The position numbers were made by a program, and so were the translations under genes. DNA of 32,000 nucleotides from an uncultured Thermoleophilaceae bacterium (lineage in GTDB: Bacteria; Actinomycetota; Thermoleophilia; Solirubrobacterales; Thermoleophilaceae): positions 742,446-774,445 of the forward strand of contig CAVVCU010000005.1 of the NCBI GenBank assembly GCA_963746825.1, written 5' to 3'. Under the pieces are notes generated by a model. It worked only from the letters and a program-made list of their open reading frames with translations, was not told the origin of the DNA and did no database searches. Positions within the stretch are counted from its first letter, which is position 1; the number at the start of each line of letters is the position of its first letter. Below are positions 8,322-28,012 of the stretch, piece by piece.

Positions 8322-8368
8322 CTCGTCGCGGACTCCTTGGAGCTCCTGGCACGTAGTCCAGGCTGATC

Positions 8369-9642: not shown

Positions 9643-9696
9643 CGTGGGGCGAGTGTACGGGGGTATGTTGCGTGCCCGACCGGGTACAGGCTCGAG

Positions 9697-10620: not shown

Positions 10621-10622
10621 GC

Positions 10623-11555: not shown

Positions 11556-11577
11556 GCTGGGCGGGCTGAAGAACCCC

Positions 11578-12591: not shown

Positions 12592-12594
12592 CTC

Positions 12595-12629
12595 GACCGG
12601 GCGCGCCGGTCCACTGTGAGGCATGTCAC
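12595..12629 (+). terminator. Two GC-rich hairpins after the beta-helix gene (possible intrinsic terminator, no U-tract)
   Basis: GACCGG-gcgcg-CCGGTC at 12595..12611 begins 4 nt after the TGA stop. It is followed by TGTGA-ggcatg-TCACA at 12614..12629. Confidence 0.25.
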
Positions 12630-12665
12630 ATGGGGGTGGCGGCGGCTCTCTAGCGTGGCGTGGCC

Positions 12666-13848
12666 ATGCGGGTCCTATTCGCCACCACAGCCAACGCGGG
12701 TCATTTCCGCCCGCTGGTTCCGTTCGCCGAGGCGTGTCTTGCGGCCGGCCACGATGTGCTGGTGGCGGGGCAGGCCGGCGCGGCCCCGGCGGCGCGGCGG
12801 GCGGGGCTTTCGTTTCGGCCGATCGCCGAGCCGAACGACGAGGCGCTCGCGCGGTTTCGGGCCGGCCAGGCGGGCCTGTCGGCGACGCAGGCGATGGGCC
12901 GCGCGCTGACCGACCTCTATATCGGCTTGTACGCGGGGGCGGCTCTCGAGGACATGCTCGCGGTGGTCGAGGAGTGGCGTCCTGACGTGGTGGTGCGCGA
13001 GAGCGCCGAGTTCTCAGCCCTGATCGCCGCGCAGCGCCTCGGTGTTCCCCACGCCCGGGTGGGCATCGGACTCTCCACGCAGCTCGAGACCAAGATGCTG
13101 GCGCTGGCGGGTCCGGCGCTCGACGAGCTTGCTGCCACGGTCGGAGTCAGCCCCGGTCTGGCGGGCCATGCCGCCCGGTCGCTCTGTCTCACCGTGGCCC
13201 CCGCGTCGCTGGACGGCACCGCTGCGCCTGACACCGAGCAGGTGCGGCGTTTTCGTCCTACCTCCGCCGGCCCCGCCGGTTCGCCGCCCAAGGGCTGGGG
13301 CGACCCGGCCGCGCCGCTGGTCTACCTGTCGTTCGGCACCGAGGTGCCCTCGCCCGAGCGCGACTACTTCCCCGGCGTCTACCGCGCCGCGGTGGATGCC
13401 CTGCAGGGGACGGGGGCGCGCGTGCTGGTCACCGTCGGCGACCAGCGCGATCCCGCCGACCTGGGCCCGCTGCCGGCGGCGGTGCGGGTGGAGCGCTGGG
13501 TGTCCCAGGCCGAGCTGATGCCACACACCGCGGTGATGGTCGGCGCACGGCGGCTCGGGCTCGGCGCTCAGCGCGCTGGCCGCCGGCGTTCCCATGGCCC
13601 TGGTGCCCTTCTTCGCCGACCAGCACTTCAACGCGGGTCGCTTGGCCGAGCTCGGCGCCGCCATTGCGCTTGGTGACGGACCCGCGTCCCTCCCTCAGCT
13701 CGAGGAGGCCGTGCTCGAGCTGCTGAGCGATGCGCGTTATCGCGACCGAGCGGGCGCAATCGCGGACGAGATCGAGACCCAAGCTCCGATCGAGCAAGCA
13801 CCAAACGCGCTGTCGGCACTGGCCGAACATCCGGTAACAGCCGCATAG
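12666..13848 (+). pseudogene. GT1-family (MGT/UDP-glycosyltransferase-like) glycosyltransferase interrupted by a +1 frameshift near 13545
   Basis: The N-terminal 290+ aa (MRVLFATTANAGHFRPLVPFAEA...) are in the frame of ORF 12660..13676. The conserved C-terminal half (HGGSGSALSALAAGVPMALVPFFADQHFNAGRLAELGAA...) continues in the frame of ORF 13594..13848. Reading GTC GGC g CAC GGC GGC TCG restores VGHGGSGS if one base around 13545 is removed. Confidence 0.7.
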
Positions 13849-13876
13849 CCCTCGCGGGAGGTGGCATGCTCGCGGG

Positions 13877-15322
13877 GTGACCCTTGTCGTGGCCAGCCGC
13901 GCGGATTTGACCATCGACGCGGTACGTCGGGTGGCGTGGGAGGGCGAGGGGGTCGGACTCGCTCCGGAGGTCATCGAGCAAATGGACCGCAGGCATGGTG
14001 AGTTCAACGACTATCTCGCCGCGTGCCTGGCCGAGGACCCCGGTGCGCTGCTCTACGGCGTCACGACCGGGCCGGGCGACGCGGGAGCTGCGGTGCTGTC
14101 CGACCGGGCCCTCGCCACCAGGCCGCGTGGGCTGTGGACCGCCGCATCGTTCGGGGAGCCGCTTCCCGAGCGGGTCGTGCGGGGGATCGTGCTCGCGCGC
14201 CTGGCCAACTTCGTGGAGGGCCACGCGGCGGCTCGGCCGCAGGTGGCCGCCGCGGTGGCCGCGATGCTCGACGCAGGGCCGCTTCCGGCCGTGCCCGCGC
14301 GGGGCAACGGCGGATCGGGCGAGATCCTCGCGCTCGGCCACCTGTTCGGGGAGGTGGCCGACCGGCTCGAGCTCGAGCCGAGGGAGAAGATGGCGTTGAT
14401 CAACGGATCGCCCTGCGCCGCCGCGATGGTGGCCGATGCCGCCCTCGCCGGACGGGGCCGACTCGAGCTCGCCGAGGCCACCTTCGCGTTGTCGGTCGAG
14501 GCCATCCGGGCGCCGCTGGAGGCGTTCGCGCCCGAGCTGGGGGACCTGTGGGGCAATGAACACGAGGCCGAGGCGTTGACGTCGTTCAGGTCACTGCTGG
14601 CGGGAGGCGCTCACGAGCGCCAGGCCCATCAGGCTCCGGTGAGCTATCGCGTTTTGCCGCGGGTGCTCGGCAGGCTCCGCGAGGCGCAGGCGCACGCTGA
14701 GCGGACCGCGACGGGCTCGCTGGGCTCGGTGACCGACAATCCGGTCTTCCTGGCGCCGAGCGAAGACCACCCGCTGGGCGCGCTGGTGTCGAACGGCGGC
14801 TACCACAACGATCGTGCCCATCCCGCGCTGGACGGACTGGCCCACGCCTGGGCGGACGTCGCGCAGCTCGCTCAGCGACACATCGACAAGCTCTTCCAGC
14901 ACCCGGTCAGCGCGCCGTTGCTGGCCGGCGAATGGCTGACCAAGCCGCTGCACATGGTGGGCGCGAGCTACGCCGAGGAGGCGCGAACGGCGGCGCAGAC
15001 CACCGTGCTCGGCCTGGGCGGCTTCGGCCAGAACGACCTCCCCTCTCCCGCCTTTCTCGCGTGGAACAAGGCGGACGCCGTCGGCACCTGCCTCGAGCGG
15101 ACACTCGCGGTGCTGGCCGCGCTCGCCTCGCAGGCTCTCCACGTCGCCGGCCAAACGCCACCGCCCGCGCTCGCACCGCTGCTGGATCAGGTGCGCCGCT
15201 CCTTTCCGCCCGTTGACTCGCCCCGCCAACTCGGCCCCGACGCCGAGCGCCTCGCCGCGGCGTTCAGCCGCCACGTGCAACCGGAGCGCGTTCAGCGCTT
15301 CGGCGGTAGCGAGCGTGCGTAG
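13877..15322 (+). CDS. Aromatic amino acid ammonia-lyase (HAL/PAL/aminomutase) family protein with a divergent MIO motif
   Basis: 481 aa, GTG start. Family landmarks: LYGVTTGPG (cf. YGxNTGFG), GNGGSGEILALGHL (cf. GSVGASGDLAPLSHL), SVTDNPVF, NGGYHN. Confidence 0.8.
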   Translation: MTLVVASRADLTIDAVRRVAWEGEGVGLAPEVIEQMDRRHGEFNDYLAACLAEDPGALLYGVTTGPGDAGAAVLSDRALATRPRGLWTAASFGEPLPERVVRGIVLARLANFVEGHAAARPQVAAAVAAMLDAGPLPAVPARGNGGSGEILALGHLFGEVADRLELEPREKMALINGSPCAAAMVADAALAGRGRLELAEATFALSVEAIRAPLEAFAPELGDLWGNEHEAEALTSFRSLLAGGAHERQAHQAPVSYRVLPRVLGRLREAQAHAERTATGSLGSVTDNPVFLAPSEDHPLGALVSNGGYHNDRAHPALDGLAHAWADVAQLAQRHIDKLFQHPVSAPLLAGEWLTKPLHMVGASYAEEARTAAQTTVLGLGGFGQNDLPSPAFLAWNKADAVGTCLERTLAVLAALASQALHVAGQTPPPALAPLLDQVRRSFPPVDSPRQLGPDAERLAAAFSRHVQPERVQRFGGSERA

Positions 15323-15985: not shown

Positions 15986-17248
15986 CTAGGCGGGCAGCCA
16001 CGCTCCGTGCAGCCCGTACGGCACCCGCACCGGCAGGCGCAGCCGGGCCACGGGGCCGCCGGCGAGGTCGCCGGCATCGAGCAGCAGCAGCTCGGCCGCG
16101 TCGCGGGCGGTGTCGTGGACGAAGCCCGCCACGAGTGACTGGCCGTCCACCTCACCGAGCGAGACCATCTCGCCCCCGAAGCGCCCCGGTCCGAACTCGT
16201 GGTCCTGGCGCGCGCCGCTCTCCAGGTCGATCGCGGAGACCCCGCGCGCCACGGTGTAGTTGTCGCCGGTCGGGCGCGTCACCACGACACGCCGCCCGTC
16301 GGCGAGCAGGGTCGGGAAGTCGCACGGCTGGTCGTCGATGTCCGCCTCGACCACGCCGCCGTCGCGGGTGTCGATGCTCCAGCGCCGCAGCGAGCCCGGC
16401 GTGTCCTCGAAGGGGTTGTCCTCGCCCGCGGTCACGCCCGGGACGCGCCGGCGGCAGCCGACGACGTGCACGGTCGGTCCGTCGGACCACGCGGCGGCCA
16501 GGTGCGACACATGGGCGGGCGTCACGTCCGCCACCACCGCGCTGCAGCCGGTGCGGTCGGCCAGCGCTATCGCCGCGCCGGTCTCGGGCTCCCACTCGAC
16601 ACCACGCTCGTGGCGGCGCCACGGCAGGTCGAGCGTGACCACGCGTCCGTCGACCACGCGCAGGTCGTGCATGAACGGCCGCCGCTCGGTCGAGTACTCG
16701 CCGGTGGCGCGCCAGTGGCCGTCGTCACCTCGCTCGAGGAAGGTCAGCGCCGGGTCGTTCCATCGCGTTCCGACGGTCACCGGCCGTCCGTCGACCCGCG
16801 TCACGTGGGGCAGCACCATGTCGACCCCCGGCGCATCGACCACGTCGGGGCCGACCGTCTCCAGCGTGACCGGGTCCACGCGCCATGGGCGCCCGCTGTC
16901 GCTCAGGGCCAGCAGCCCGTCGGCGCCCAGGTCGGCGAGGCCGGCCGACGCCGGCTCCTCGGCCCGCCCGAACGCGGGCACCAGGTCGTCGAGCGACGGC
17001 GTGCGCACCCAGCGGTTGCCGTAGGTGGCGCGGCCGTCCTCGATCCGCACGGCGTGGACCATGCCCTGCCCGTCGACCCATACCCCGCCCACGCCTTGGC
17101 TCGCCGCGCGGTTGGGGCCGTTGCGCACATAGGTGCCCGCCAGCCCGGCGGGCAGGGTCCCCTGCACCTCGAGCTCGATCTCCACCCCGCCGGCCTCGGA
17201 GGCGACGGGCCGGTAGTTGGAGCGCAGGTCGGCGGTCGCGGTGCTCAT
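15986..17248 (-). CDS. Carotenoid cleavage oxygenase (RPE65/CCO) family non-heme iron dioxygenase, last gene of the RiPP operon
   Basis: 420 aa from ATG 17248, which overlaps the upstream ABC stop (ATGA, 17245..17248). Family motifs: VDGQGMVHAVRIEDGRATYGNRWVRT, and four candidate His-ligand contexts LPHVTRVDG, FMHDLRVV, VSHLAAAW, YGLHGAWL. The long track ORF (to 18826) is an out-of-frame shadow over the ABC gene. Confidence 0.85.
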   Translation of the reverse strand: MSTATADLRSNYRPVASEAGGVEIELEVQGTLPAGLAGTYVRNGPNRAASQGVGGVWVDGQGMVHAVRIEDGRATYGNRWVRTPSLDDLVPAFGRAEEPASAGLADLGADGLLALSDSGRPWRVDPVTLETVGPDVVDAPGVDMVLPHVTRVDGRPVTVGTRWNDPALTFLERGDDGHWRATGEYSTERRPFMHDLRVVDGRVVTLDLPWRRHERGVEWEPETGAAIALADRTGCSAVVADVTPAHVSHLAAAWSDGPTVHVVGCRRRVPGVTAGEDNPFEDTPGSLRRWSIDTRDGGVVEADIDDQPCDFPTLLADGRRVVVTRPTGDNYTVARGVSAIDLESGARQDHEFGPGRFGGEMVSLGEVDGQSLVAGFVHDTARDAAELLLLDAGDLAGGPVARLRLPVRVPYGLHGAWLPA

Positions 17249-20100
17249 GCCGTCTGCCTGCGCACCAGGTCGTCGAACAGGCCGGGCTCGGCGGCCAGGG
17301 TGTCGTAGGTCCCCTCCTGCACGATCCGCCCGTCGTCGATCACGTACAGGTAGTCGGCCCGGCGAATGGTGCTCAGGCGGTGGGCGATCACGATGCGGGT
17401 GGCGTCGAGGCCGTCGATCGCCCCCATCACGTCCTCCTGGGTCTCGTTGTCGAGCGCGCTCGTGGCCTCGTCGAGGAAGAGGATGCGAGGCCGGTGCGCG
17501 ATGGCGCGGGCGATCATCAGGCGCTGCACCTGCCCGCCCGAGAAGGTGACCCCGTTCTCGCCCACCAGCGTGTGCATCCCCATGGGCATGCGATGGATGT
17601 CGTCGGCCAGCCCGGCCTGCTCGGCGGCCCACCAGGCATCGTCCTCGGTGAGCGCGGAGTTGCCGATGATGTTGCTCTCGAGCGTGCCCGGCATCGGCTT
17701 GCTGTCCTGGAGTACGACGCCCACCTGGCGGCGCACCATTCGCATGTTCAGCGAGGCGAGGTTGCGCTCGTCGTAGACCACGCTGCCGCGATCCGGTGTC
17801 TCGAAGCCCAGCAGCATCCGCATCACCGTCGACTTGCCCGCCCCCGACGGCCCGACCAGCGCGACGTTCTGCCCCGGCTCGACGGTCAGGGTCACGCCCT
17901 GAAGCGTCGGCTGGGCGTCGGGCCCGTAGCGGAAGTGGACGTTCTCGAGGCGGATGCGCCCGGTGAGGAGGCCGGGGTCGCCGTCGGGCTCGTTTCGCTC
18001 CGGCACCGCCTCGAGCACGGGCCGAAGCCGCTCGTAGAGCGGGATCACCGTGATCGACGCCACCAGGGCGAAGCTCAGCTGCGTCGCGGCGACGGTGAAC
18101 TGGGCCAGGGCGGCGGCGAAGGCGACGAACGTGCCCGTGGCGATGTCGGCGTTCATCAGCCCGGCCACGACGGCGAACAGGATCATCGACAGGACCAGCG
18201 GGGTGCCCGCGATCGTGGTGGCCAGCGCGCAGTACACGAGCTGGCTGCGGTAGTTGGCGTCCTGCTGGCGGTGGAAGCGCTCGGCCCAGCGGGCGAAGGC
18301 CGGGATCTCGCGGCCGGCGATGCGGATCTTGTCGATTCCCTCGAGCAGCCCGAAGAGGACGCCGAAGATGTGTCCCTTCTCCAGGAACATCGTGCGCTGG
18401 TGGCGGACCTGGCGCACGCTGAGCCAGGCCAGCAGCGCCCCCACCGCCACCAGGCCGGCGACGGCGAACAGGGCGAGCAGCGGGCTGTAGACGAACAGCA
18501 GCGCCAGGCTGAAGCCGCCGAACATCGTGCTCAGCACCGCGGACACGGTGGCGTTGGAGAGGATCGCGTTGATCGAGTTGACGCCGTAGGCCCGCGACGT
18601 CAGGTCGCCGGTCGCGTAGCCCGCGTGGAAGCTCGCCGGCAGCGCCAGCAGCCGGTCCCAGACGCCCGCCTGAAGCACCCCGTCGAGGTTCCCCGACAGG
18701 CGTGCCACGGCGATGGCGCGCGCGTAGGCGAGGACGCCCCCCGACACCGCGGCGGCCAGCAGGAAGGCGGCGGTCCACCAGATCGCGGGGCGATCGTTGT
18801 CGGGGATGAACGCGTTGAACAGCCACTGGGTGCCGATCGGCAGCGCCAGCGCGAGCAGCCCGCCGGCCACGCCGGCCACGAGCAGCGAGAGCAGGGCGGC
18901 CTGCTGGTGGCGAAAGCCGATGCGCAGCAGGTCCTTCAGATCCAGCGGGCGGGCGGGAAGCGGCGCGTAGAGCTCAAAGCCCAGCGGGTCGAGCGCCGCG
19001 AGCAGGTCGGCGTCGACCCGGGACTCGGCGCCGGTGGCCGGGTCGTGACAGAGGTAGCCCCCGCGGGGCCGCGGCAGGAGCGCGACCGGGTCCCGCTCGG
19101 CGCCGCGAAAAGCCAGCACCGGGCTCGTGGCGCGCCGGTGCCAGCCGGAATCGAGCGAGACGCGGCGGTGGCGTACCCCCGCCGCCATGGCGATGGCCGA
19201 CACGGGGTCGGTGCCGCGGCGATAGGACGCGGGTGGGTCGACGAACTCCACGCCCAGCCAGGCCCCGATCCTGCGACAGGCGCTCAACGTGCGGTCGAAG
19301 CCGTCCTGCTCGGCAAGCGGTGGCGCGGCGGGCATGTCCCCGAGCGCGGACGCGATGTGGGTGATCGAGCGGGTGAGCAGCGCGGTGCCGCCCGCGCGCG
19401 CGGCGGCCAGGCGCGCGTCGGAGTCGCGGTCCAGTTGCTCGACCCTGGCCCGCGCGGCCGTGAGCAGCACCCGATGGGAGCCGCGAAGTGCCTCGAGGGT
19501 CGCCGCGGTGTCGCCCTGCGCGAGCGGGTCGGTCACCACCACGCGCGTCGCGCCGCGGGCGATCAGCCGCACGCCGGCGGCGAGGGGAATCGCGGCCGTT
19601 GAGTCGAGCGCGCCCAGCACATCGTTCCGCGGGCCGATCAGCTCGAGGCGTCCCGCCTGGACCGCCAGGGCGAGCCCGTCGGCGCGCAAGCGGACGATGT
19701 CGCCGTCGCCCAGCTCGTAGGCCCCGCCATCGGCGGCGTCCAGCACCCGGTCCGCCTCGCCGTCCTCGTCGAGCGTCCCGGCGAGCGCGGCAAGCCACGC
19801 GCCCAGCGCAGAGGCGTCGACCGTGGCCTCGGCCAGCTCGGTCCGGGGCTCGCCGACCGCGACGACCGTGTGGCCGTCGGGCACGTCGGCGGGGTCGAGC
19901 GGGGCCACGCACGCGCCGGGCGCGGCCCGCAGCAGGAAGTGGCGCCGGCCGCCCGGCTCCGCGAGCGTGCCCGGCTGGAGGAAGACGTTGAGCGCGCCGG
20001 CCTTGACCAGCTGGACCCGCTCGGTCGCCTCGAGGGCAAAGGGGTTCGTGGCGTCGAAGGCCTCGGTGCGGGCCTCGCCGTGGGCGTCGGAGACGGTCAC
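17245..20100 (-). CDS. ABC exporter (permease + ATPase) with ~390-aa non-peptidase N-terminal region; NHLM-system second transporter type
   Basis: 951 aa from GTG 20100 (GTGA overlap with the upstream ABC stop). Six-TM region, Walker A GPSGAGKST, signature FSGGQVQRLMIARAI, Walker B ILFLDEATSALD. The N-terminus has beta-rich repeats and a degenerate C39-like segment (LSACRRIGAWLG ... SPVLAF). Confidence 0.85.
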   Translation of the reverse strand: MTVSDAHGEARTEAFDATNPFALEATERVQLVKAGALNVFLQPGTLAEPGGRRHFLLRAAPGACVAPLDPADVPDGHTVVAVGEPRTELAEATVDASALGAWLAALAGTLDEDGEADRVLDAADGGAYELGDGDIVRLRADGLALAVQAGRLELIGPRNDVLGALDSTAAIPLAAGVRLIARGATRVVVTDPLAQGDTAATLEALRGSHRVLLTAARARVEQLDRDSDARLAAARAGGTALLTRSITHIASALGDMPAAPPLAEQDGFDRTLSACRRIGAWLGVEFVDPPASYRRGTDPVSAIAMAAGVRHRRVSLDSGWHRRATSPVLAFRGAERDPVALLPRPRGGYLCHDPATGAESRVDADLLAALDPLGFELYAPLPARPLDLKDLLRIGFRHQQAALLSLLVAGVAGGLLALALPIGTQWLFNAFIPDNDRPAIWWTAAFLLAAAVSGGVLAYARAIAVARLSGNLDGVLQAGVWDRLLALPASFHAGYATGDLTSRAYGVNSINAILSNATVSAVLSTMFGGFSLALLFVYSPLLALFAVAGLVAVGALLAWLSVRQVRHQRTMFLEKGHIFGVLFGLLEGIDKIRIAGREIPAFARWAERFHRQQDANYRSQLVYCALATTIAGTPLVLSMILFAVVAGLMNADIATGTFVAFAAALAQFTVAATQLSFALVASITVIPLYERLRPVLEAVPERNEPDGDPGLLTGRIRLENVHFRYGPDAQPTLQGVTLTVEPGQNVALVGPSGAGKSTVMRMLLGFETPDRGSVVYDERNLASLNMRMVRRQVGVVLQDSKPMPGTLESNIIGNSALTEDDAWWAAEQAGLADDIHRMPMGMHTLVGENGVTFSGGQVQRLMIARAIAHRPRILFLDEATSALDNETQEDVMGAIDGLDATRIVIAHRLSTIRRADYLYVIDDGRIVQEGTYDTLAAEPGLFDDLVRRQTA

Positions 20101-22286
20101 TGAGCGCCCACCAGCTCGGCGTAGCGCCCGTCGGCGGCCATCAGGTCGTCGTGGGTGCCGCGCTCGGACACCTTGCCCTGGTCGAGCACGATGATCTCGT
20201 CGCAGTCGCGGATCGTGCTCAGGCGGTGGGCGATGATCAGGCACGTGCAGCCGCGGCGGCGGAGGTTGAGGTCGATGGCCAGCTCGGTCTGGGTGTCGAG
20301 CGCGCTGGTGGCCTCGTCGAGCACCAGCACCGACGGCTCCAGGGCGAGTGCGCGGGCGATCTCGAGTCGCTGGCGCTGGCCGCCGCTGAAGTCGCGCCCG
20401 TCCTCGGCCACGCTGCTCTCGAGCGCTCCCGGGCGCTGCATGATCACCGGCCGGATGCAGGCGTCCTCGGTGGCCCGTTCGACGACCTGGCGGTCGACCG
20501 ACTCGTCCCAGAGCGTGAGGTTCTGGGCCACCGTGCCGGAGAACAGGCGGATGTCCTGATCGACCGAGGCCACCGAGCCCGTGATCACGTCGCGCGGCAG
20601 CTGGGTGCGGTCCACCCCGTCGAGCAGCACCTGGCCCTCCCACGGCTCGTAGAGGCCGAGCACGAGCTTCCCGACCGTCGACTTGCCGCTGCCGGTCGAG
20701 CCCACGAGCGCCACGCGCTGCCCGGGCGCCAGCCGCAGCGAGAAGGACTCGAGCAGCGGGGCCTGGTGGCGCCCGTAGCCGAAGGTCACGTCACGCAGCT
20801 CGACGAATCCCTCCAGCCTGCGCGCGCGATCCGCGGACGCTCCGTTGGCCTCCGCCGGGCGGGCGGGATCGCCGATGCCCGCCAGGTGAGGATCGATGTC
20901 GTAGTCGAGCACGTCCTGGACCTGGGCCAGGTTGGCGCGCGCCGTCTGCAGCTGGGTGGCCAGGGCGACGAGGTTCGAGATCGGCAGGAGAAAGGAGGCC
21001 ATCAGCGTCGTGAAGGCCACGAGCGCCCCGACAGTGAGCTGGCCCTCGGTTACCAGCAGAGCGCCTCCGACGAGCACCACGGCACTGCTGAAGGCCGACA
21101 GCGTGGCGGGTGTTGCCGTGAGCGTGGCGGTCAGCCCGCCGACCGACTGCGAAGCGTTGACCGCGTGCGTCTGGAAGCCGGCCCAGCGGGCGAAGTACTC
21201 GTCCTCGGCGCCGGTGGCCTTGATCGACTCGATGATCCCGAGGCCGCCGAAGGCCACCCCGTCGAGGCGCACCTGCTCGTGCTGGAGCAGGTTGTTGGCA
21301 TCGATGCGCCGGCGGGCGACGAGCTGGAGCGCGACGAAGTTGAGCAGCCCGATGCCGATGCCGATCAGCGTCAGCGTCACGCTGTAGTGGAACATCACCA
21401 CCACGTAGAGGACGAGGGTGATCAGCCCGATGAAGGCCGTTGCGAGCTGGCCGGAGAGCAGCTGAGCGATGTCGTCGTTGAGCTGCACGCGCGTGACCAC
21501 GCCGCCCACGAAGCGCTGGGCGAAGAACTCGCTGGGCAGGCGGAGCAGGTGCCAGAGGAAGCGGCTCGAGGTACGAAGCGTGAGCCCGATCTGGAGCCGC
21601 ACCAGCGCCAGCTGCTGCACGTAGGTGAGCGCCAGCAGGAGAGCGAGGGTGAAGGTCATGGCGCCCAGGAGCGGCCAGACCGAGTCCGACGAATCCGGAA
21701 TCAGCACCTCGTCGATGAACAGCTGGGAGAACAACGCCGCGAGGATCGTCGGCACGGCCAGGGCCACCCCCGCGATCACGGCAGCGAGCAACCCCAGCCG
21801 CGAGCCGTCGAGTATGCGCCAGAGCGACCGCGTGAAGGTCGAGCGCCGGCCGCCCCGCTCGAACTCGGCCGTGGGCTCGAAGGTGAGGACGATGCCGGAG
21901 TAGGCGTCGGCGAACTCCTGGAAGCTGATCTTGCGGCGGCCGATCGCGGGGTCGGCCAGTTCGATCGTGTCGCCGTGAATGCGCGTCAACACGACGAAGT
22001 GGCTCGCGTTGAGGTACACGATCGCCGGTAGCCGCACGTCGGCCAGCTCCTGCTCGGTCTTGCGGTATCCGTGCGCGTCGAGCCCGTACGAGCGCGCCGC
22101 CGCCAGCAGCGCGGCCGCGCTGGCCCCGTCGCGCGAGACGCCGCAGTCGGCGCGCAGCCGCTCGAGGGCCACGAAGCGGCCGTGGGCGCCGAGCACCATC
22201 GCCAGCGACGCCGCACCACACTCCGCCTCCTCCATCTGGAGCACCACCGGCACGCGGCTGGCCGGGATGTCGTGCTCCCGTTTCAC
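20097..22286 (-). CDS. Peptidase C39-domain bacteriocin ABC exporter (leader-cleaving, double-glycine type)
   Basis: 729 aa, GTG start 22286 (GTGA overlap with the HlyD stop). C39 motifs QMEEAECGAASLAMVLG (Gln/Cys) and NASHFVVL (His). Walker A GSTGSGKST, signature FSGGQRQRLEIARAL, Walker B VLVLDEATSALD. Confidence 0.9.
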   Translation of the reverse strand: MKREHDIPASRVPVVLQMEEAECGAASLAMVLGAHGRFVALERLRADCGVSRDGASAAALLAAARSYGLDAHGYRKTEQELADVRLPAIVYLNASHFVVLTRIHGDTIELADPAIGRRKISFQEFADAYSGIVLTFEPTAEFERGGRRSTFTRSLWRILDGSRLGLLAAVIAGVALAVPTILAALFSQLFIDEVLIPDSSDSVWPLLGAMTFTLALLLALTYVQQLALVRLQIGLTLRTSSRFLWHLLRLPSEFFAQRFVGGVVTRVQLNDDIAQLLSGQLATAFIGLITLVLYVVVMFHYSVTLTLIGIGIGLLNFVALQLVARRRIDANNLLQHEQVRLDGVAFGGLGIIESIKATGAEDEYFARWAGFQTHAVNASQSVGGLTATLTATPATLSAFSSAVVLVGGALLVTEGQLTVGALVAFTTLMASFLLPISNLVALATQLQTARANLAQVQDVLDYDIDPHLAGIGDPARPAEANGASADRARRLEGFVELRDVTFGYGRHQAPLLESFSLRLAPGQRVALVGSTGSGKSTVGKLVLGLYEPWEGQVLLDGVDRTQLPRDVITGSVASVDQDIRLFSGTVAQNLTLWDESVDRQVVERATEDACIRPVIMQRPGALESSVAEDGRDFSGGQRQRLEIARALALEPSVLVLDEATSALDTQTELAIDLNLRRRGCTCLIIAHRLSTIRDCDEIIVLDQGKVSERGTHDDLMAADGRYAELVGAQ

Positions 22287-23092
22287 GGGAAGACCTGGTC
22301 GAGTACCGATCCCTCCGACACGACGATGCTGGCCTCGGTCAGCTGGCCGGCCGAAATCGAGGCGTCCGACCCGCTCGGCGTGGACCAGGCCAGGCCTCCG
22401 GGCCCCGACGGGTCGGAGCGCAGCTTGATCTCAACCAGGTAGACGGCCTGCGAGCGAGCAACCTCGTTGATCACGCGCTCGCCGCCGAAGATGCGCTCCA
22501 GCTCGGCGTCGCCGGCCGGATAGGGGTCGATGTCGGCCACCTTGCCGTGGGCGTAGCCGAGCTCGGCGCCGCCCACGCTGTCCGGGCGCACCTGCACCGG
22601 CGCACCCACGTAGATCTCCGAGCGCCGGTCGACCGGCACCACGACGTTCGCGGCCAGCGCCCCGCCGGTCGGCTCGAGTGAGAAGAGCCGCTCGCCGGTG
22701 GTCACCACCGCCCCGGTGCTCGCCACGGCGTCGACCACGCGTCCGTCGATCGGTGAGCGGAGGACCGTGGGCGTGCCGTCGGCCCCCGTGATGGTGGCCA
22801 GCGCCTGGCCCTTCCGTACGCGCGCGTCGATGTTTGCCTGGAGCGCCGTCACGCGGCCGGCGGCCGGCGCCTGCACGACGCTCGGGCCCTCGCCGCGCTG
22901 CAGGATGCCGCGGCTCGGCACGGTCTCGCGCACGGTGGCGAAGAAGCCCCACGCGACCGCGAGGCCCACGAGGACGAGGAGCGCGGCGAGCACGATCCAC
23001 AGCCGTGGGCGGATGAGGGTGAGCAGGCGGTCGAGCTGGTCCGGCGAAACGGGGCCGCGGCCTGCGGGGGCGTCGACGGGCTCGGCGGTCAT
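22283..23092 (-). CDS. HlyD-family secretion adaptor, short form (NHLM-system secretion protein type)
   Basis: 269 aa from ATG 23092 (ATGA overlap with the SagB stop). N-terminal anchor LWIVLAALLVLVGLAVAWGFFA, then barrel-sandwich/lipoyl-like strands (VVQAPAAGRVTALQANIDARVRKGQALATI ... LRSPIDGRVVDAVASTGAVVTTGERLFSL). There is no long coiled-coil hairpin. Confidence 0.8.
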   Translation of the reverse strand: MTAEPVDAPAGRGPVSPDQLDRLLTLIRPRLWIVLAALLVLVGLAVAWGFFATVRETVPSRGILQRGEGPSVVQAPAAGRVTALQANIDARVRKGQALATITGADGTPTVLRSPIDGRVVDAVASTGAVVTTGERLFSLEPTGGALAANVVVPVDRRSEIYVGAPVQVRPDSVGGAELGYAHGKVADIDPYPAGDAELERIFGGERVINEVARSQAVYLVEIKLRSDPSGPGGLAWSTPSGSDASISAGQLTEASIVVSEGSVLDQVFP

Positions 23093-24423
23093 GGCGCACC
23101 CGTGAGCAGGAACTCGCCGACGCTGCCCTCGTCCCAGCGGTCGAGCCCGCTGGCCCGCTCGAAGGCAAGGGCGTCGCCCCCGCCGAGTGCACAGCCGCCG
23201 ATCCCCGTCGCCGTCGCCGCGAGGTAGAGGGCGTGGTAGGCGACGCCGACGTCCTTGAGGGCGGCGGCATACGCCATGCCGGTGTACTTGTATTGCAGGC
23301 GGCCAAAGCGCGCGGCCAGTACCAGCAGCACCTGGACCGGCGCCCCGTCGGGCAGGCCCGCCGTCCAGCGCGCGCCGCCCACGAGCGGCGCCAGATCGGC
23401 GTCGGTAGCAGTTTCGATCCGGCGCAGCACGTGCTCCTCGCCCGAGTAGTGGTAGAGCCCTGGGTCGATCCCCTCGCAGTCGACGACCAGCGGGTAGAGG
23501 CCCACGGCGGCGAGCGATCCGGCGCTCGGCACCGGCCGGCTGACCTCGTCGCCGGCAGGGGCCGGGCCCACCGCCCGTACGCGCACCGTCCTGTGCAGCA
23601 GCTCGGCGAGCTGATCGATCGTCAGCGATCCGGCCGCCCGGCGCCGCGACCGGCGGCGCTCGGCCACCTCCGCGTAGCCGGCTGCGTCGTCCGGAGCCGG
23701 CTCGATGAGCTTGATCGGGGCGCCCGTGGCCCCGGCGGGCAGATGCTCGCCCGGGAGCGCGTCCATCTTCCCCGCGAGGGGCTTGGTGGCTCCGTAGGGC
23801 CGCGGAGAACGGCCCCAAAGGCGGCTGCGTGTGTGGAAGAGGCGGTCGTGGAACTCCCAGCGATCCACGGGCTCGAGCGGCCCGGGCGCGTCGTCGTCGG
23901 TGGCCACGAGGATTCCCGCGTGGCACAACACGTTCCGCCATGCCGGGGGCACGTCACCGGAAAGCAGCGCGCTCGCGAAGCGGGGTTCGATCGGGTCGCT
24001 GCGCCCCGGGTCGGCCGCCGATTCGAGGATCAGCCCGCCTAGGTCGCCGAGGCCGCGGCGCAGGAACACGTCGGGACTCAGCTCGAGCTCGTGGGCGTGT
24101 CCCGTGGGCTCGTCGGGCAGCGCCGGTGTGGCGATCGTGGCCGCCACGCCCTGCTCGTCCAGCAGCTGCGCGGAGATCATCCCGCGGCCACACAGCCGGT
24201 CGAGCAGCGACCGGGCCTCGATCTCGGCCAGCAATCGGTTGTCCGGGCCCGCGGCGCCCGCCGCCTGGTCGATCAGCTGGTCCGCGGACACCCCGGGCGA
24301 GGAGCCCAGCAGCTCCAGCAGCGTGGCCGACAACGGCGACGCGCCGGCGGGGACCGCCTCGAGGCCCGGGCGCCATCCAAGGGCCACCGTGGTCTGCGCC
24401 TCGGTTAAAAGAAGACTGCCCAC
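23089..24423 (-). CDS. SagB-type FMN-dependent azoline dehydrogenase (nitroreductase fold) with N-terminal extension
   Basis: About 444 aa. The C-terminal half matches SagB/McbC-type dehydrogenases (RRSRRRAAGSLTIDQLAELLHRT, PSAGSLAAVGLYPLV, YKYTGMAYAA, GIGGCALGG). The start is set at GTG 24423, a 19-nt overlap with the YcaO gene. A GTG 9 codons downstream is an alternative. The track ORF start at 24741 lies inside the YcaO gene. Confidence 0.85.
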   Translation of the reverse strand: MGSLLLTEAQTTVALGWRPGLEAVPAGASPLSATLLELLGSSPGVSADQLIDQAAGAAGPDNRLLAEIEARSLLDRLCGRGMISAQLLDEQGVAATIATPALPDEPTGHAHELELSPDVFLRRGLGDLGGLILESAADPGRSDPIEPRFASALLSGDVPPAWRNVLCHAGILVATDDDAPGPLEPVDRWEFHDRLFHTRSRLWGRSPRPYGATKPLAGKMDALPGEHLPAGATGAPIKLIEPAPDDAAGYAEVAERRRSRRRAAGSLTIDQLAELLHRTVRVRAVGPAPAGDEVSRPVPSAGSLAAVGLYPLVVDCEGIDPGLYHYSGEEHVLRRIETATDADLAPLVGGARWTAGLPDGAPVQVLLVLAARFGRLQYKYTGMAYAAALKDVGVAYHALYLAATATGIGGCALGGGDALAFERASGLDRWDEGSVGEFLLTGAP

Positions 24424-26708
24424 GGGTTCAGGTCCTCCTCGGGGACGGGACGCTCGAGCCAGCCGAGCGCGACGGGGACGTCGTAGAGCCGCCCGGCGCC
24501 GAGCCGCGACCACATGTGGCGCAGCCCCGGTGCGACGGCCTTCACCACCGGCAACCCGATGTCCGGGCGCGTCTGGTCGAGCAGGTACAGCGGCACCCCG
24601 GCCTCGGCAATGCGCTCCGTGCAGGTGGTGAGCTCGGTCAGCAGGTCGGGATCGGACCGGTCGGGCATCTCGGCGATCGAGCGCGACGGGCCCGGAGCGG
24701 GCGCCAGGTAGGCGTGCTCCTCGAGCCGGGCGCAGCTCCACCAGCGGGAGGCCGCCTCGTCGAAGGTGACGTAGCGGTCCTCACCGGCGTCACCCCACCG
24801 CTCGAAGCTGGCCAGAAACTGGACCAGCTCGGAGAGGGCGCGCACCACGGCTCCGGCAGGGTCGATGTGGGCTCCGAAGCCGAATACCAGCTCCTCGTCG
24901 GAGCCCCGTCGGCGGCTGGCGGCGCACACCACCGGGATGCCGAGGTCGTTGGTGAGGTCGATCGCCCACACCTCGCGGCCGAGCTGGTCGAGGCGGTTGA
25001 CGAGTCGCTCGACGTAGGGGTCGGTGACCGAGGCGAGGTCGATGCCGGGCCGCTGCACGCGGTTGTACCACCAGATTCCGACCGCGTCCCGCTCGATCAG
25101 CTCGAGCACCCCCTGCAGGGCCGCGTCCTCCAGTGACGAGCCGGCGGCGTGGCCGTTCGAGTCGGCCAGGAAGTAGAGCTCCGAAGCGCTTCGGTAGCCG
25201 TGGTAGCTCGCGTAGTTGAAGTAGCACATGCCCGCCGGCAGCAGGCGGCGAGTGCCGTCGACCGGCGACCACATCGGGCTCCAGTCGATCTCCGCGTCGA
25301 CGTCGAAGGGCTCGGGGACGAGCTGGGACGAAATGGTATGGATGCGGCCGGCCTCGTTGAGCGCCTCGCGCTCGCGGTACTGGCGCTCGCTGAAGCCCAT
25401 CACGTCGTTGGGGTGGATGGCCTCCTCCAGCTCGGAGTAGCGGCCCCGAACATTGGCCTCGTCGCCGCGGTACACGCCCGAGTAGCGCTCGAGCGCCTCG
25501 CAGATGGCGCCGACGCGCGCGTCCGCGTCGGTCGGGCCCTTGCCGCCCGAGCGAACCCTGAGGCTCCGGCGCAAGAAGGCGAGGCCGTCGTACTGGACGG
25601 CGAAGTTGTGACCCGCCGTGTAGGCGTGGATCACTCCCTCCTGGTCGGCGAACACGCTGTCGACCGACTTGACCGCACCGGTGATCGGGCTGACGTGGGT
25701 GCCCACGCGCTCGAGGGTGGCCTCGACGCTCGCCGCGCGGTGCAGGCGGTTGCCGGCCGAGGGCCGGCTGCTGAGCACGGGAGCCGAGAAGCCGCGGTCC
25801 GCGACCATTCCGGGGTCGCCGCATGCCGGGCATTGGGGGCGCCGGATCAGCGCGTGCCGCGCGACCTCGAGGGTGCGGGTGTCGATCGTGAGCAAAGTGC
25901 CCTCGAGCGGCCGGGCGGCGGTGCCCCCGGCGACGTTGCGCAGCTGCTGTGCGGCCAGGGCGGCGGCGAGCCGTTCGGCCGCGGGATCCTGTGCGCGGCC
26001 GACCGGGCTCTCGATCGGTGCGCCGCGCTGCTGAGACAGATACGACTCGACGGCCCGGTTGCCCTGAAGGCGCTCGGCCAGGCAGTGCCAGCAGCCGGTT
26101 TGCCCGGGCACCAGCAGTGGGCCGAGCCAGATCGTGGCGCCCACCGGCTTGAGCAGCAGCCAGGGCTCGCCCGCGGCCCGCTGGCGCTCGTCCACCGCGG
26201 CCAGCTCGGAAGTGAGGTAGTCGGCGGTGGCGACCGCCGTGAGCGTGCCCTCCGCGCCCGGAGCACCGAGCAGCCCGGCGGCGTCGAGCGCCTCGTCGAG
26301 CACGGTGGGGTCGATGTCGCCGAGGGTCGTGGCGCGCACACCGGTGGCCGCGACCCGCGGCTCCGCGTCATCGGCGCTCACCCCCGCCAGCGCCCAGTAG
26401 GCGCGCTGGCCGTCGGAGACGCCGGCGTCGCCCGCGGTCTCCAGGTAGCCCTTCGCGGTCATGGTTTCGAGCACGTGGTAGGTCTCGAGGGGCGTGAAGC
26501 GGTCGGCCAATGCCTCCGCGAGGTCGTCGGCGCTTCGCGTGCCATCGACCAGCTCACCCAGCGCGCGGTGGATGGGCTCGCTCAGCACCTTCGAGCCGTC
26601 CTCGGAGAGCAGGAAGACCCCGACCCCGTCCACGCGCTCCACCGAGAAGCGCGGATCGAAGCGCACCGCGGTGCTGCCCGTTGCGAGGGGAGGCGAAAGG
26701 GTGCTCAT
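24405..26708 (-). CDS. Fused TOMM cyclodehydratase: E1/ThiF-like docking (C-protein) domain + YcaO (D-protein) domain
   Basis: 767 aa, ATG 26708 (ATGA overlap with the LLM stop). N-terminal winged-helix-like segment (VLSEPIHRALGELVDGTRSADDLAEAL). The E1-like region ends in RRPQCPACGDP. The C-terminal half is a YcaO/SagD-type domain (GKGPTDADARVGAICEALERYSG ... NGHAAGSSLEDAALQGVLELIERDAV ... PVVKAVAPGL). Confidence 0.9.
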   Translation of the reverse strand: MSTLSPPLATGSTAVRFDPRFSVERVDGVGVFLLSEDGSKVLSEPIHRALGELVDGTRSADDLAEALADRFTPLETYHVLETMTAKGYLETAGDAGVSDGQRAYWALAGVSADDAEPRVAATGVRATTLGDIDPTVLDEALDAAGLLGAPGAEGTLTAVATADYLTSELAAVDERQRAAGEPWLLLKPVGATIWLGPLLVPGQTGCWHCLAERLQGNRAVESYLSQQRGAPIESPVGRAQDPAAERLAAALAAQQLRNVAGGTAARPLEGTLLTIDTRTLEVARHALIRRPQCPACGDPGMVADRGFSAPVLSSRPSAGNRLHRAASVEATLERVGTHVSPITGAVKSVDSVFADQEGVIHAYTAGHNFAVQYDGLAFLRRSLRVRSGGKGPTDADARVGAICEALERYSGVYRGDEANVRGRYSELEEAIHPNDVMGFSERQYREREALNEAGRIHTISSQLVPEPFDVDAEIDWSPMWSPVDGTRRLLPAGMCYFNYASYHGYRSASELYFLADSNGHAAGSSLEDAALQGVLELIERDAVGIWWYNRVQRPGIDLASVTDPYVERLVNRLDQLGREVWAIDLTNDLGIPVVCAASRRRGSDEELVFGFGAHIDPAGAVVRALSELVQFLASFERWGDAGEDRYVTFDEAASRWWSCARLEEHAYLAPAPGPSRSIAEMPDRSDPDLLTELTTCTERIAEAGVPLYLLDQTRPDIGLPVVKAVAPGLRHMWSRLGAGRLYDVPVALGWLERPVPEEDLNPWAVFF

Positions 26709-27982
26709 CGGCCGGCCGCCTCGAGGGAGACCATCTCGTCCGGGCTCCAGCCGTCGACCAGGTCGAACTCCGGCATCACCTCGGAGGCGAAGAGCTCGAG
26801 CTGGGCGATCAGCAGGTCGTCGTCCACGAGCCCCCAGGGCAGGTGCCAGACGAAGTACTCGATCCCGGCCTCGACGATGGCCTCCATGCGGCGCTTCACG
26901 TCGTCCAGGAGCCCGCCGATGACCATGCCCGAGCTCAGCAGCCGCCCGCCCACGGTCTCACCCGGGCCAGGGACCGGTCCGGTCTCGCCGGGGTGGCGCA
27001 GGGTCTCGAGAAAGCCGAAGTTGCGGTACCAGTCGGTCCAGATCGCGCGGTTGTGGTTGCGGGTCATCTCGTCCAGCTGGCTGCGATCGCGACAGATCTG
27101 GACGCTGCGGACGATGCCGGTCTGCTCGCCGGGGGCGAGCTCGCGCCCCACGCTCGCTGCCACCTCGCGGTAGCCGCGGGCCAGGCGAAACACGGTCTCG
27201 TCCGGCGTGGCGAGCATGGTCGGGATCAGGCCCTCGCGCGCTGCCCAGTCGACCGTCTTGGCGCTGGTCGAGTTGGCCTGGAACACCGGCGGGTGGGGCT
27301 GCTGGAAGGGCCGCGGCACCACGCTCACGCCGACGACCGTGCCGTTCTCGTCGACCTCGCCGGGCGTGCCGTATTGGCGGGTGAAGTCGGCCGGCGGCCA
27401 GTTCTGGATGCCCTCGTCGTAGGGGTAGGGCACCTCGTAGTGCTCGCCCTTGTACTGCAGCAGGTCGTCCGTCCACGCGGCCTTGAGGATGCGGAAGTGC
27501 TCGGCGAAGAGCCGGCGGTTGCGGGCATCGGCTTCCTCGTCGCCGAGGGACGCGGCCCTGTTTCCCATGTGCTGGCCGAGCACGTCGACCCAGCGGCGCT
27601 GATACCCGCGGGCAAGGCCGACGAAGAACCGGCCCCCCAGCATGTGGTCGATCATCGAGCAGCGCTCGGCGAGCCGGATGGGATCGTGAGTCGGCAGCAC
27701 GAAGCCGAGCTGTCCATGGCGCAGCCGGGTGGTCCGGCTGCCCAGATGGAGGTTGTACAGCCCGGGGTCGGGCGAGAGCTCGAGGCCCTCGGAGTGGAAA
27801 TGGTGCTCGGTATGGGAGAGGCCCCAGTAGCCGAGCTCGTCCAGGGTGATGGCGAGCCCCTCGAGGCTCGTGAGCATCTCCTGGAATACCTCGTTGTTGC
27901 GTCCAATGGGACGCCGCTCGAGGTCGGCGGCCGGATCGCCCGCCGACGGGTGGACCTGAATGATGACTTTGGTCTTAGCCAC
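26705..27982 (-). CDS. Luciferase-like monooxygenase (LLM) class flavin/F420-dependent oxidoreductase
   Basis: 425 aa, GTG 27982, 30 nt downstream of the precursor stop. LLM landmarks: LGYWGLSHTEHHF, RLRHGQLGFVLPTHDPIRLAERCSMIDHMLGGRFFVGLARGY, and a C-terminal TIM-barrel region. The cofactor (FMN versus F420) cannot be told from sequence by eye. Confidence 0.85.
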   Translation of the reverse strand: MAKTKVIIQVHPSAGDPAADLERRPIGRNNEVFQEMLTSLEGLAITLDELGYWGLSHTEHHFHSEGLELSPDPGLYNLHLGSRTTRLRHGQLGFVLPTHDPIRLAERCSMIDHMLGGRFFVGLARGYQRRWVDVLGQHMGNRAASLGDEEADARNRRLFAEHFRILKAAWTDDLLQYKGEHYEVPYPYDEGIQNWPPADFTRQYGTPGEVDENGTVVGVSVVPRPFQQPHPPVFQANSTSAKTVDWAAREGLIPTMLATPDETVFRLARGYREVAASVGRELAPGEQTGIVRSVQICRDRSQLDEMTRNHNRAIWTDWYRNFGFLETLRHPGETGPVPGPGETVGGRLLSSGMVIGGLLDDVKRRMEAIVEAGIEYFVWHLPWGLVDDDLLIAQLELFASEVMPEFDLVDGWSPDEMVSLEAAGR

Positions 27983-28012
27983 GACGGCGGGCGGTAGTCA
28001 GGCCGGCGTGGG

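Follow-up and report, generated by a model that had tools for sequence, protein, structure and literature searches.

A luciferase-like flavin enzyme dedicated to NHLP/YcaO azole peptide clusters, very probably an undescribed tailoring enzyme

Here, we analyze an operon in a 32,000-nucleotide stretch of DNA from an uncultured Thermoleophilaceae bacterium (the window), in which a gene for an enzyme of the luciferase-like monooxygenase (LLM) superfamily lies between an NHLP-leader precursor and a YcaO cyclodehydratase (Table 1). The stop codon TAG of the precursor (28015..28013) is separated from the LLM gene by 30 nt (28012..27983), and the LLM stop codon TGA (26707..26705) overlaps the ATG of the cyclodehydratase (26708..26706), giving ATGA at 26705..26708. 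Both features had been read from the sequence in the original prediction and are as described; of the enzyme genes, that for the LLM lies closest to the precursor, and its translation is coupled to that of the cyclodehydratase. The overlap recurs in three orthologous loci (L003, L092 and L093), and a gap of 2 nt separates the two genes in L004. GTG 27982 is the earliest start available downstream of the in-frame stop 5' of the LLM gene; because the consensus N-terminus of the family, MPKVIxQVYPS, aligns from residue 3 of the window protein, we consider this start correct. The stretch from the precursor to the LLM gene was scanned for regulatory hairpins and terminators, with 0 sites returned and a fold z-score of −1.1.

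Table 1. Genes of the azole peptide operon and their positions in the window
Feature	Coordinates	Strand	Families
NHLP-leader precursor, 110 aa	28013..28345	-	TIGR03793
LLM flavin enzyme, 425 aa, GTG start	26705..27982	-	PF00296
Fused winged-helix/E1-like docking domain and YcaO cyclodehydratase, 767 aa	24405..26708	-	PF02624, TIGR03604, TIGR03882
SagB-type azoline dehydrogenase	23089..24387	-	TIGR03605
HlyD-type NHLM secretion adaptor, 269 aa	22283..23092	-	TIGR03794, PF13437
NHLM ABC exporter 1 with C39 leader peptidase domain	20097..22286	-	TIGR03796, PF03412
NHLM ABC exporter 2	17245..20100	-	TIGR03797
RPE65/carotenoid-oxygenase-like gene	15986..17248	-	PF03055

Each member of the NHLP-type TOMM set (precursor, cyclodehydratase, SagB and NHLM export) scores above its NCBIfam cut-off. 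TIGR03793 gives 54.6 bits for the precursor (cut-off 50.9), and the cyclodehydratase reaches 263.3 bits with TIGR03604 (cut-off 219.25), 141.4 bits with TIGR03882 and 311.6 bits with PF02624, in agreement with the identities first proposed for these two genes. SagB, scored on the ORF 24741..23089, reaches 114.7 bits with TIGR03605 (cut-off 78.4); its start is GTG 24387 or GTG 24423, both in frame, and its orthologues in L003 and L005 have PF00881. The HlyD adaptor scores 157.2 bits with TIGR03794 (cut-off 156.2), ABC exporter 1 948.8 bits with TIGR03796 (cut-off 853.3) and 124 bits with PF03412, and ABC exporter 2 792.7 bits with TIGR03797 (cut-off 709.4). Two further ORFs in this region, a 552-aa “HlyD” ORF (23941..22283) and a 140-aa ORF (24376..23954), are spurious products of the high G+C content, and the region actually encodes SagB in a different frame and the 269-aa HlyD, whose genes share an ATGA overlap. 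The TIGR03794 and PF13437 matches fall exclusively in the C-terminal portion of the 552-aa ORF, and HlyD orthologues are 263–302 aa long, with tblastn identities of 81–91% over 269 aa. The RPE65-like gene (PF03055, 197.7 bits) also lies downstream of ABC exporter 2 in L003, L006 and L007 and closes the operon in Thermoleophilaceae-type clusters.

Several lines of evidence support the LLM ORF as a real gene. First, the protein scores 101.3 bits with PF00296 (cut-off 27.9), which places it in the luciferase-like monooxygenase superfamily. Second, homologues with 69–96% identity span its full length. Third, its AlphaFold (AF2) model has a mean pLDDT of 91.7 and the TIM-barrel LLM fold, with the last 13 residues disordered. 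Foldseek matches this model to many LLM structures with a probability of 1.00. Ranks 1–48 are LLM-fold monooxygenases and luciferases, several solved with FMN; RslO1, Atu2307, luciferases and the type II Baeyer-Villiger enzyme 3,6-DKCMO are at the top, and a PKS/NRPS OX domain (6KET), MsuD, SfnG and SsuD are also included. The earliest F420 enzyme, FGD1, appears at rank 49. The motifs E59-H60-H61-F62 and A124-R125-G126-Y127 align with EHHF and GRGF of the luciferase 8cbb, and the corresponding E-H-H-F and x-R-G-[YF] motifs also align with RslO1. These motif residues are invariant across 67 aligned family members, in which 57 columns are invariant, including H60, H61, H63, E65 and R125-G126-Y127. 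The window protein, thus, has the LuxA-type His pair after strand 2 and the phosphate-binding Arg, which we take to be the equivalents of the catalytic pair H44/H45 and of R107 in LuxA. Its best sequence and fold matches are LuxA-type oxygenases (luciferase, RslO1 7BIP, Atu2307 2I7G and 3,6-diketocamphane monooxygenase 4UWM), with which it has in common the E-H-H-F and R-G motifs and the TIM-barrel, where the TM-score on the target reaches 0.86. It differs from them in that identity is only 15–20%, about 70 residues are additional, forming a family-wide insertion around 175–232, and the substrate is presumably a peptide.

Our data support, on balance, a scenario in which the enzyme is an FMN oxygenase; that it is an F420H2-dependent reductase, representing a new F420 lineage in the luciferase-like branch that reduces a peptide C=N or C=C bond, e.g., converting some thiazolines to thiazolidines before SagB oxidation, appears possible but unlikely. 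FMN is favored by the LuxA-type motifs and by the Foldseek neighbors, the nearest of which are all oxygenases or luciferases. It is also favored by P0057, a 53% identical homologue in Mesobacillus harenae that has the 57 invariant columns of the family and occurs in a non-RiPP context with an NAD(P)H:FMN reductase two genes away; searches of this genome for cofD and cofE found neither. Counted on the side of F420 is the distribution of its biosynthesis genes. In the window genome, cofE, fbiC and cofD are all above cut-off, and an argument for FMN from an F420-less host was therefore dropped; across hosts the enrichment is striking, with F420 biosynthesis genes in 12 of the 14 genomes tested (cofE or cofD, and the two together in genomes searched for each). 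Among the hosts of homologues with 36–41% identity, three of four Pseudomonadota and one Myxococcota are F420-positive, against a background of 6/300 in a Pseudomonadota sample. Moreover, two TIGR03619 F420 LLMs flank the gammaproteobacterial homologue L010, which lies some 20 kb away from cofD/cofE, and the homologue P0024 has a gene for a PF04075 F420H2-dependent reductase as its neighbor. No flavin reductase gene was found in three cluster layouts (L003, L108 and L189) or among the scanned ORFs of the window; for LuxA-type oxygenases, a partner reductase encoded nearby is common but not obligatory. There is also precedent for a change of cofactor: the FMN/luciferase-like branch has given rise to F420 use on one or more occasions, and Type C F420 LLMs descend from FMN ancestors (PMC8518648).

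The two TIGR03619 proteins beside L010 have E-H-[VT] and G-[TA]-G-W in place of E-H-H and A-R-G-Y. Judged against these proteins, the window enzyme lacks the flavin-site motifs of F420 LLMs, and they lack the second His and the phosphate-binding Arg that are invariant in its family. The window protein lies below the cut-off of every F420-LLM family in NCBIfam that we compared (TIGR03619, 03560, 03559, 03621 and 03854), the best score being 58.9 bits for TIGR03619 (cut-off 166.9), in the N-terminal half only, and none of the 67 family members reaches any of these cut-offs. The best partial NCBIfam match across the family is TIGR04020, the MupA/Atu3671 family of secondary-metabolite LLMs to which NRPS/PKS OX domains belong; it gives 53.4 bits on the window protein (cut-off 244.45) and covers residues 47–130 only. 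NCBIfam sub-families were, however, rejected as a guide to the cofactor in the window protein and its 67 homologues, as partial FMN and F420 scores are alike and none is above cut-off; we count these non-deciding scores against the FMN reading. To our knowledge, thiazolidines do not occur in RiPPs, which counts against the reductase.

The original prediction had drawn an analogy to F420H2-dependent LLM reductases of other RiPP pathways. LxmJ, which converts dehydroalanine to D-Ala in lexapeptide with F420H2, is a precedent for RiPP tailoring by an F420 LLM and shares with the window enzyme the LLM fold and an F420-making actinobacterial host. The analogy is nevertheless weak given the LuxA-type fold and motifs, the rank of the first F420 enzyme and the sub-threshold NCBIfam scores. 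With its TIM-barrel, LxmJ belongs to the Type A F420 enzymes and groups with Mer (PMC8518648), and the window enzyme is distant from Type A and Type B F420 enzymes in the fold ranking. An LxmJ-type role in forming D-Ala is excluded, as no dehydratase that could supply dehydroalanine is encoded in the operon. The second example that had been named, TpnL of the thiopeptins, turned out to be a split beta-barrel enzyme rather than an LLM (PMC8518648).

The LLM clade is dedicated to NHLP/YcaO clusters, and close relatives stand in the same operon type in many actinobacteria. For LLMs with at least 69% identity, an NHLP precursor lies within 86 nt in 8/8 distinct loci, and YcaO is present in these loci wherever the flank is long enough. 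In a tree, the clade of the window LLM is monophyletic (support 99/89) and nested in a 36-row clade (100/99) that spans about 51–97% identity and three cluster layouts; the sampled members L107, L108, L189 and L087/L190 are all in or near an NHLP-YcaO-SagB-HlyD-ABC cluster. L111 and L114, which are 53–54% identical and lie outside the tree sampling, have the same cluster type. Homologues of 50–58% identity came from protein look-ups and a metagenome scan and were missed by the contig pattern scan. Co-occurrence with RiPP genes, whose absence would have refuted the original prediction, is real: this clade, NHLP precursors and YcaO genes occur together in at least 13 distinct loci. Below 48% identity, RiPP genes were found near none of about 75 loci of LLM homologues. 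The identities of LLM and YcaO decrease in step (96/93, 86/79, 82/82, 75/72, 69/60, 55/43 and 54/35%).

It is improbable that the LLM is a catabolic or protective passenger that does not act on the peptide and serves, e.g., self-protection or small-molecule metabolism. Sister clades (P0032, P0057 and P0024) would fit such a role, as they occur in non-RiPP contexts in which no RiPP genes were found, beside FAA-hydrolase, cyclase and lactamase-B genes. Likewise, in Microbacterium sediminicola, which together with Rudaeicoccus suwonensis is one of two cultured hosts of related clusters, pabB, a 2TM gene and ispG stand between the LLM and the cluster. However, a role of the LLM in maturation is favored by the coupling of its stop to the YcaO start, its location next to the precursor, its co-divergence with YcaO and its retention across three cluster layouts.

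The precursors share characteristic cores. In the window, the leader ends ...SELEGVAGAG and the core is CACCCCCTGAASDEIL; the orthologue cores (L003, L004, L006, L007, L008, L092 and L093) follow C-x-C(4-5)-(T)-G-A-[AT]-S-x-E-[IT]-L. Every LLM-linked core has a run of 3–7 contiguous Cys with Gly or Ala directly after the last Cys, Thr or Ser of the run, and C-T-G-A-[AV]-S is retained across clusters with strongly diverged leaders. Rudaeicoccus-type cores end ...CTCTA, and the tail is absent. YcaO homologues of 41–43% identity in a phylum sample are without this LLM; no NHLP precursor was detected in their vicinity with the precursor HMM, which leaves no cores of LLM-less relatives for comparison. 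The Cys runs and the adjacency to the cyclodehydratase would also suit a second azoline oxidase or SagB helper that oxidizes thiazolines SagB handles poorly, but this is the least probable reading, given that every full LLM cluster retains a complete SagB, that ordinary B proteins suffice for contiguous azoles in other linear azole peptides and that we know of no azoline dehydrogenation by an LLM.

The operon shares its leader, cyclodehydratase, SagB, HlyD and exporters with NHLP-type TOMM/linear azole peptide clusters (Haft, Basu and Mitchell 2010) and differs from them in two respects: the canonical set lacks an LLM, whereas here the LLM clade belongs to the cluster as a constant addition, and the cores have a contiguous Cys run followed by a conserved tail. 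As originally stated, LLMs lie outside the canonical NHLP and TOMM gene sets; they are mentioned in neither Haft 2010 nor Cox 2015, and a literature search for LLMs in NHLP/TOMM clusters found no description. Altogether, the window LLM can very probably be regarded as a tailoring enzyme that has not been described before. We suggest that it is dedicated to NHLP-leader poly-Cys azole peptides and, as the reading we prefer with modest confidence, acts as a two-component FMN oxygenase. The view that its function cannot be assigned from sequence stands for the exact reaction but gives way in that the options can be narrowed.

As a model for such an FMN oxygenase, we propose that the LLM was recruited into these clusters from a broader family of LLMs of about 420 aa, otherwise found in catabolic-looking contexts, and was then inherited jointly with the YcaO cyclodehydratase. 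It would form the oxygenase half of a two-component system in which a host flavin reductase supplies FMNH2, and FMNH2 and O2 would give a flavin (hydro)peroxide on the LLM. The leader-bound peptide may then be oxygenated in the cytoplasm, ahead of C39/ABC cleavage and export. The LLM carries no RRE-like recognition domain: Pfam finds PF00296 alone, the model is a single barrel, and LLM lengths are equal in RiPP and non-RiPP clades. We propose that, lacking such a domain, it probably recognizes the heterocyclized core or the conserved post-Cys tail (T-G-A-A-S-x-E-...).

The reaction we would favor is alpha-hydroxylation of the small residue after the last azole-forming residue, i.e., Gly, or the terminal Ala in one cluster type. 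The MOX domain of MtaG and MelG (myxothiazol and melithiazol) is LLM-type and converts glycine by alpha-hydroxylation to a terminal amide (PMC11411415). The PKS/NRPS OX domain 6KET, likewise an LLM-type oxygenase with a peptidyl substrate, is one of the top Foldseek matches of the window LLM. The MOX domain is NRPS-embedded and acts on a carrier-bound substrate, unlike the window LLM, and the parallel reaction is an analogy only. By this analogy, release of the tail might leave an azole-carboxamide as the new terminus. The Gly or Ala after the Cys run, the conserved C-T-G-A-[AV]-S and the MOX-domain precedent are consistent with this idea; it is less simply reconciled with Rudaeicoccus-type clusters because their cores lack the tail. 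Alpha-carbon hydroxylation with oxidative tail loss to a polythiazole azole-carboxamide, undescribed in azole RiPPs, is a doubtful proposal that we put forward tentatively.

NHLP-leader azole peptides are a large class in genomes with few known products. The fixed extra flavin enzyme marks a sub-class of them in which thiazoles cannot be the only modification of the product, and it delineates an uncharacterized LLM lineage acting on peptides. With motif evidence pointing to FMN and host-genome evidence to F420, the family is a useful test of LLM cofactor prediction; should the cofactor prove to be F420, the enzyme might instead be a reductase that forms thiazolidines, which would make it the first of its kind in RiPP biosynthesis. 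Because R. suwonensis and M. sediminicola are cultured and have related clusters, the chemistry is directly testable.

Here, we confirm the observation of a luciferase-like flavin enzyme (LLM) gene between precursor and cyclodehydratase and support its interpretation in part: LLM is noncanonical and dedicated to its NHLP-type TOMM cluster, but oxygenase activity is more probable for it than F420-dependent reduction of the LxmJ/TpnL kind. The original prediction is therefore retained as to a noncanonical, cluster-dedicated gene, while the F420-dependent reduction for which it cited lexapeptide and thiopeptins appears less likely than oxygenation. LxmJ belongs to the Type A F420 enzymes, which are TIM barrels, and TpnL is a split β-barrel enzyme, so that the thiopeptin example does not concern an LLM (PMC8518648). 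Canonical NHLP-type TOMM clusters share their marker genes with the window cluster, whereas LLM is the addition of the latter. Neither an LLM nor a monooxygenase is mentioned in the founding description of NHLP-type TOMM clusters or in the 2015 survey, and a literature search for LLM in such clusters found no describing paper.

In the window, every canonical NHLP-type TOMM NCBIfam marker fits the setting of the LLM gene. The precursor stop TAG and the LLM GTG are separated by 30 nt, in which no terminator or significant hairpin was found, and the LLM stop TGA overlaps the ATG of the YcaO gene (ATGA at 26705..26708). On re-reading of the sequence, this gap, the overlap and the ORF bounds all proved to have been predicted correctly. 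As read from the sequence, the precursor leader ends in ...SELEGVAGAG and the core is CACCCCCTGAASDEIL. Two raw ORFs in 22283-24741, a 552-aa "HlyD" and a 140-aa ORF after YcaO, are frame artefacts of high G+C; orthologous loci have SagB and then a short HlyD there. An RPE65-like gene after ABC2 is also present in three Thermoleophilaceae-type loci (L003, L006 and L007); none was seen in Rudaeicoccus-type or L189-type clusters, and the sequence of L008 ends before that position.

Features of the window in and around the LLM operon
Feature	Position	Strand	Remarks
NHLP-leader precursor, 110 aa	28345..28013	minus	TIGR03793, 54.6 bits (cut-off 50.9)
LLM, 425 aa	27982 (GTG)..26705	minus	PF00296 (Bac_luciferase), 101.3 bits
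Fused docking/YcaO cyclodehydratase, 767 aa	directly downstream of LLM	minus	TIGR03604, TIGR03882
SagB dehydrogenase	GTG 24387 or GTG 24423 (likely start)..23089	minus	TIGR03605, 114.7 bits; reading frame of ORF 24741..23089
HlyD adaptor, 269 aa	23092..22283	minus	short HlyD after SagB in orthologous loci
Two NHLM ABC exporters	downstream of HlyD	minus	TIGR03796 and TIGR03797, both above cut-off
RPE65/carotenoid-oxygenase-like gene	15986-17248	minus	3' of ABC2, stop/start overlap
PhyH dioxygenase, zinc ADH, glycosyltransferase-like ORF, aromatic amino acid lyase	8369-15322		upstream of RiPP operon
DNA-repair-type genes (DnaE-type Pol III alpha, exonuclease III-family, LigD primase-polymerase domain)	2688-6614, 28454-29314, 29325-30392		around operon; exonuclease III-family gene divergent from precursor

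Several observations bear on the pairing of LLM with NHLP clusters. First, a protein search returned ten proteins with 69-96% identity to LLM (P0003-P0013), the next ones being only 58% identical. The genomic surroundings could be read at eight distinct loci with ≥69% LLM identity, i.e., the window, the Thermoleophilaceae MAGs L006 and L007, an Acidimicrobiia MAG (L008, identical to L005), and the metagenome contigs L003, L004, L092 and L093. An NHLP precursor lies ≤86 nt from LLM in all eight, and those with enough flank share the gene order YcaO, SagB, HlyD, ABC. The sequence beyond the operon varies among these loci, so that the precursor delimits one side of a unit transferred en bloc. Second, the percent identities of LLM and YcaO drop in parallel across loci (96/93, 86/79, 82/82, 75/72, 69/60, 55/43 and 54/35), a pattern that fits long co-inheritance. 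Third, none of the ∼75 examined loci with <48% identity to LLM has a precursor or YcaO nearby. In a phylum sample of 400 genomes, an LLM homologue, merely 36-39% identical, was found in just three others, and five have a YcaO homologue (41-43%) without a window-type LLM. LLM is thus specific to one cluster sub-class.

In a maximum-likelihood tree of 72 LLM sequences, the window clade is monophyletic (support 99/89) and nested in a 36-row clade (support 100/99) containing RiPP-linked relatives, the other branches of which were sampled through four proteins. Downstream of P0069 (metagenome locus L107) come NHLP precursors, two or three in number. P0063 of Rudaeicoccus suwonensis (L108) lies in the order precursor-YcaO-SagB-M20 peptidase-LLM-B12 radical SAM-ABC2-HlyD-ABC1-ABC2, and P0033 (metagenome locus L189) in the order LLM-precursor-precursor-YcaO-SagB-HlyD-ABC1-ABC2. 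In Microbacterium sediminicola (P0043; L087/L190), two precursors, with cores ...MCCCCLLSGGVVSQDDWV and ...ACSCSTLTACCCTGVASPDNAH, accompany the same enzyme set, and LLM is displaced by ∼7 kb, with pabB, a 2TM gene and ispG in between. Two of these layouts recur in metagenome loci L111 and L114, L111 having LLM-precursor-precursor as in L189. The co-occurrence survey suggested by the original prediction thus finds LLM homologues together with RiPP genes, both at the eight loci and in the 36-row clade, contrary to the refuting case named there, in which homologues would never accompany RiPP genes. The neighbour clades (P0032, P0024 and P0057) are not RiPP-linked and adjoin FAA-hydrolase, cyclase, lactamase-B or FMN-reductase genes.

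Three loci deserve further mention. In L108 (7800-12245), LLM lies between the M20-type peptidase gene and the B12-binding radical SAM gene and overlaps the latter. The gammaproteobacterial MAG L010 carries four LLM genes within 8 kb (5359-13368), two of which are TIGR03619 F420 LLMs. In L106, another actinobacterial MAG (57% complete), a YcaO-SagB-HlyD-ABC cluster with 41% identity is immediately preceded, on its 5' side, by the 144-aa remnant of another kind of LLM (8378-8812, minus strand), the C-terminal part of which matches TIGR03858. This remnant could represent LLM decay in the equivalent position or else an artefact of assembly.

No additional domain is present in LLM, and RiPP-linked and non-RiPP clades are equal in length. 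They separate cleanly at only a few positions: 55 (L versus I) and 56 (S versus T), which adjoin the His motif, and 380 (H in 36/36 versus L in 31/31) and 382 (P versus H), both in the final strand of the barrel. The net result is a two-position displacement of a histidine on the catalytic face, as would suit a changed substrate with retained chemistry.

Based on fold neighbours, motifs and one host in which cofD and cofE were not found, we lean, with moderate confidence, toward LLM being an FMNH2/O2 oxygenase. With a confident AlphaFold model of LLM (pLDDT 91.7, pTM 0.91), ranks 1-48 of a Foldseek search against the PDB are solely LLM-fold oxygenases or luciferases, i.e., RslO1, Atu2307, the Enhygromyxa and Vibrio luciferases, 3,6-diketocamphane monooxygenase (type II Baeyer-Villiger) and a PKS/NRPS OX domain, then MsuD, SfnG and SsuD; the top-ranking F420 enzyme, FGD1, is at rank 49. 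A PDB sequence search gave the same neighbours, and no solved structure in the PDB is >20% identical to the LLM family, which passed none of the curated sub-family models. T-E-H-H-F-H-S-E-G of LLM aligns with luciferase EHHF and G-R-F-F-V-G-L-A-R-G-Y with GRF..G.GRGF, motifs that we equate with His44/His45, the catalytic pair of LuxA, and with Arg107, its phosphate-binding residue. H60, H61, H63, E65, R125, G126 and Y127 are invariant in 67 LLM homologues. P0057 of Mesobacillus harenae, 53% identical to LLM, is two genes from an NAD(P)H:FMN reductase, and neither cofD nor cofE was found in this genome.

That LLM is instead an F420H2 reductase seems less likely, and the evidence for it is one of association. 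Against expectation, the host genomes are not neutral on the cofactor. The window's genome contains cofE, fbiC and cofD, and F420 biosynthesis genes are present in 12 of the 14 host genomes tested. Hosts of 36-41% identical homologues are F420 positive in three of four Pseudomonadota and one Myxococcota, against a Pseudomonadota background of cofE above cut-off in just 6/300 sampled genomes. In L010, an LLM homologue is followed by the two TIGR03619 F420 LLMs, ∼20 kb from cofD/cofE by coordinates, and none of the RiPP clusters examined contains a flavin reductase gene. Moreover, likeness to luciferases does not exclude F420, because one F420 lineage, Type C (Apd6), is reported to have arisen within the FMN branch to which luciferases also belong (Mascotti et al., PMC8518648). 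However, two genuine TIGR03619 F420 LLMs (235 bits), when co-aligned, differ from the LLM family in having E-H-[VT] and G-[TA]-G-W at the E-H-H and A-R-G-Y sites. We place FMN above F420 because the direct motif and fold evidence and the host without a cofD or cofE hit outweigh the association, which could stem from pathway partners rather than from LLM's own cofactor. An LxmJ-like Dha-reductase role is excluded, the operon being without a dehydratase.

For the FMNH2/O2 oxygenase, the precursors suggest a candidate reaction. All LLM-linked precursors contain uninterrupted Cys runs, three to seven residues long, with Gly or Ala directly after the run's last Cys, Thr or Ser. Three of the four sub-lineages then continue with a conserved tail (TGAASDEIL, TGAASPETWS, TGAVSHDTWY, GTSTSEI or TGVASPDNAH), and C-T-G-A-[AV]-S is kept between clusters with strongly diverged leaders. 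The LLM-type MOX domain of MtaG/MelG hydroxylates the α-carbon of glycine to give a terminal amide (PMC11411415), and 6KET, an OX domain related to it, ranks with the best fold matches to LLM. Given the conserved Gly/Ala and tail, this precedent and this match, we infer as the favoured specific reaction that LLM would hydroxylate the α-carbon of the Gly/Ala after the run, whereby the tail would be lost and the peptide would terminate in an azole-carboxamide. The Rudaeicoccus-type cores (L108) weaken this idea, since they end in ...CCTCTA without a tail; the data would fit another oxygenation, at sulfur or on a side chain, just as well. Altogether, the LLM-NHLP pairing is of moderate interest for RiPP and flavoenzyme specialists and, with cultured hosts, is directly testable.
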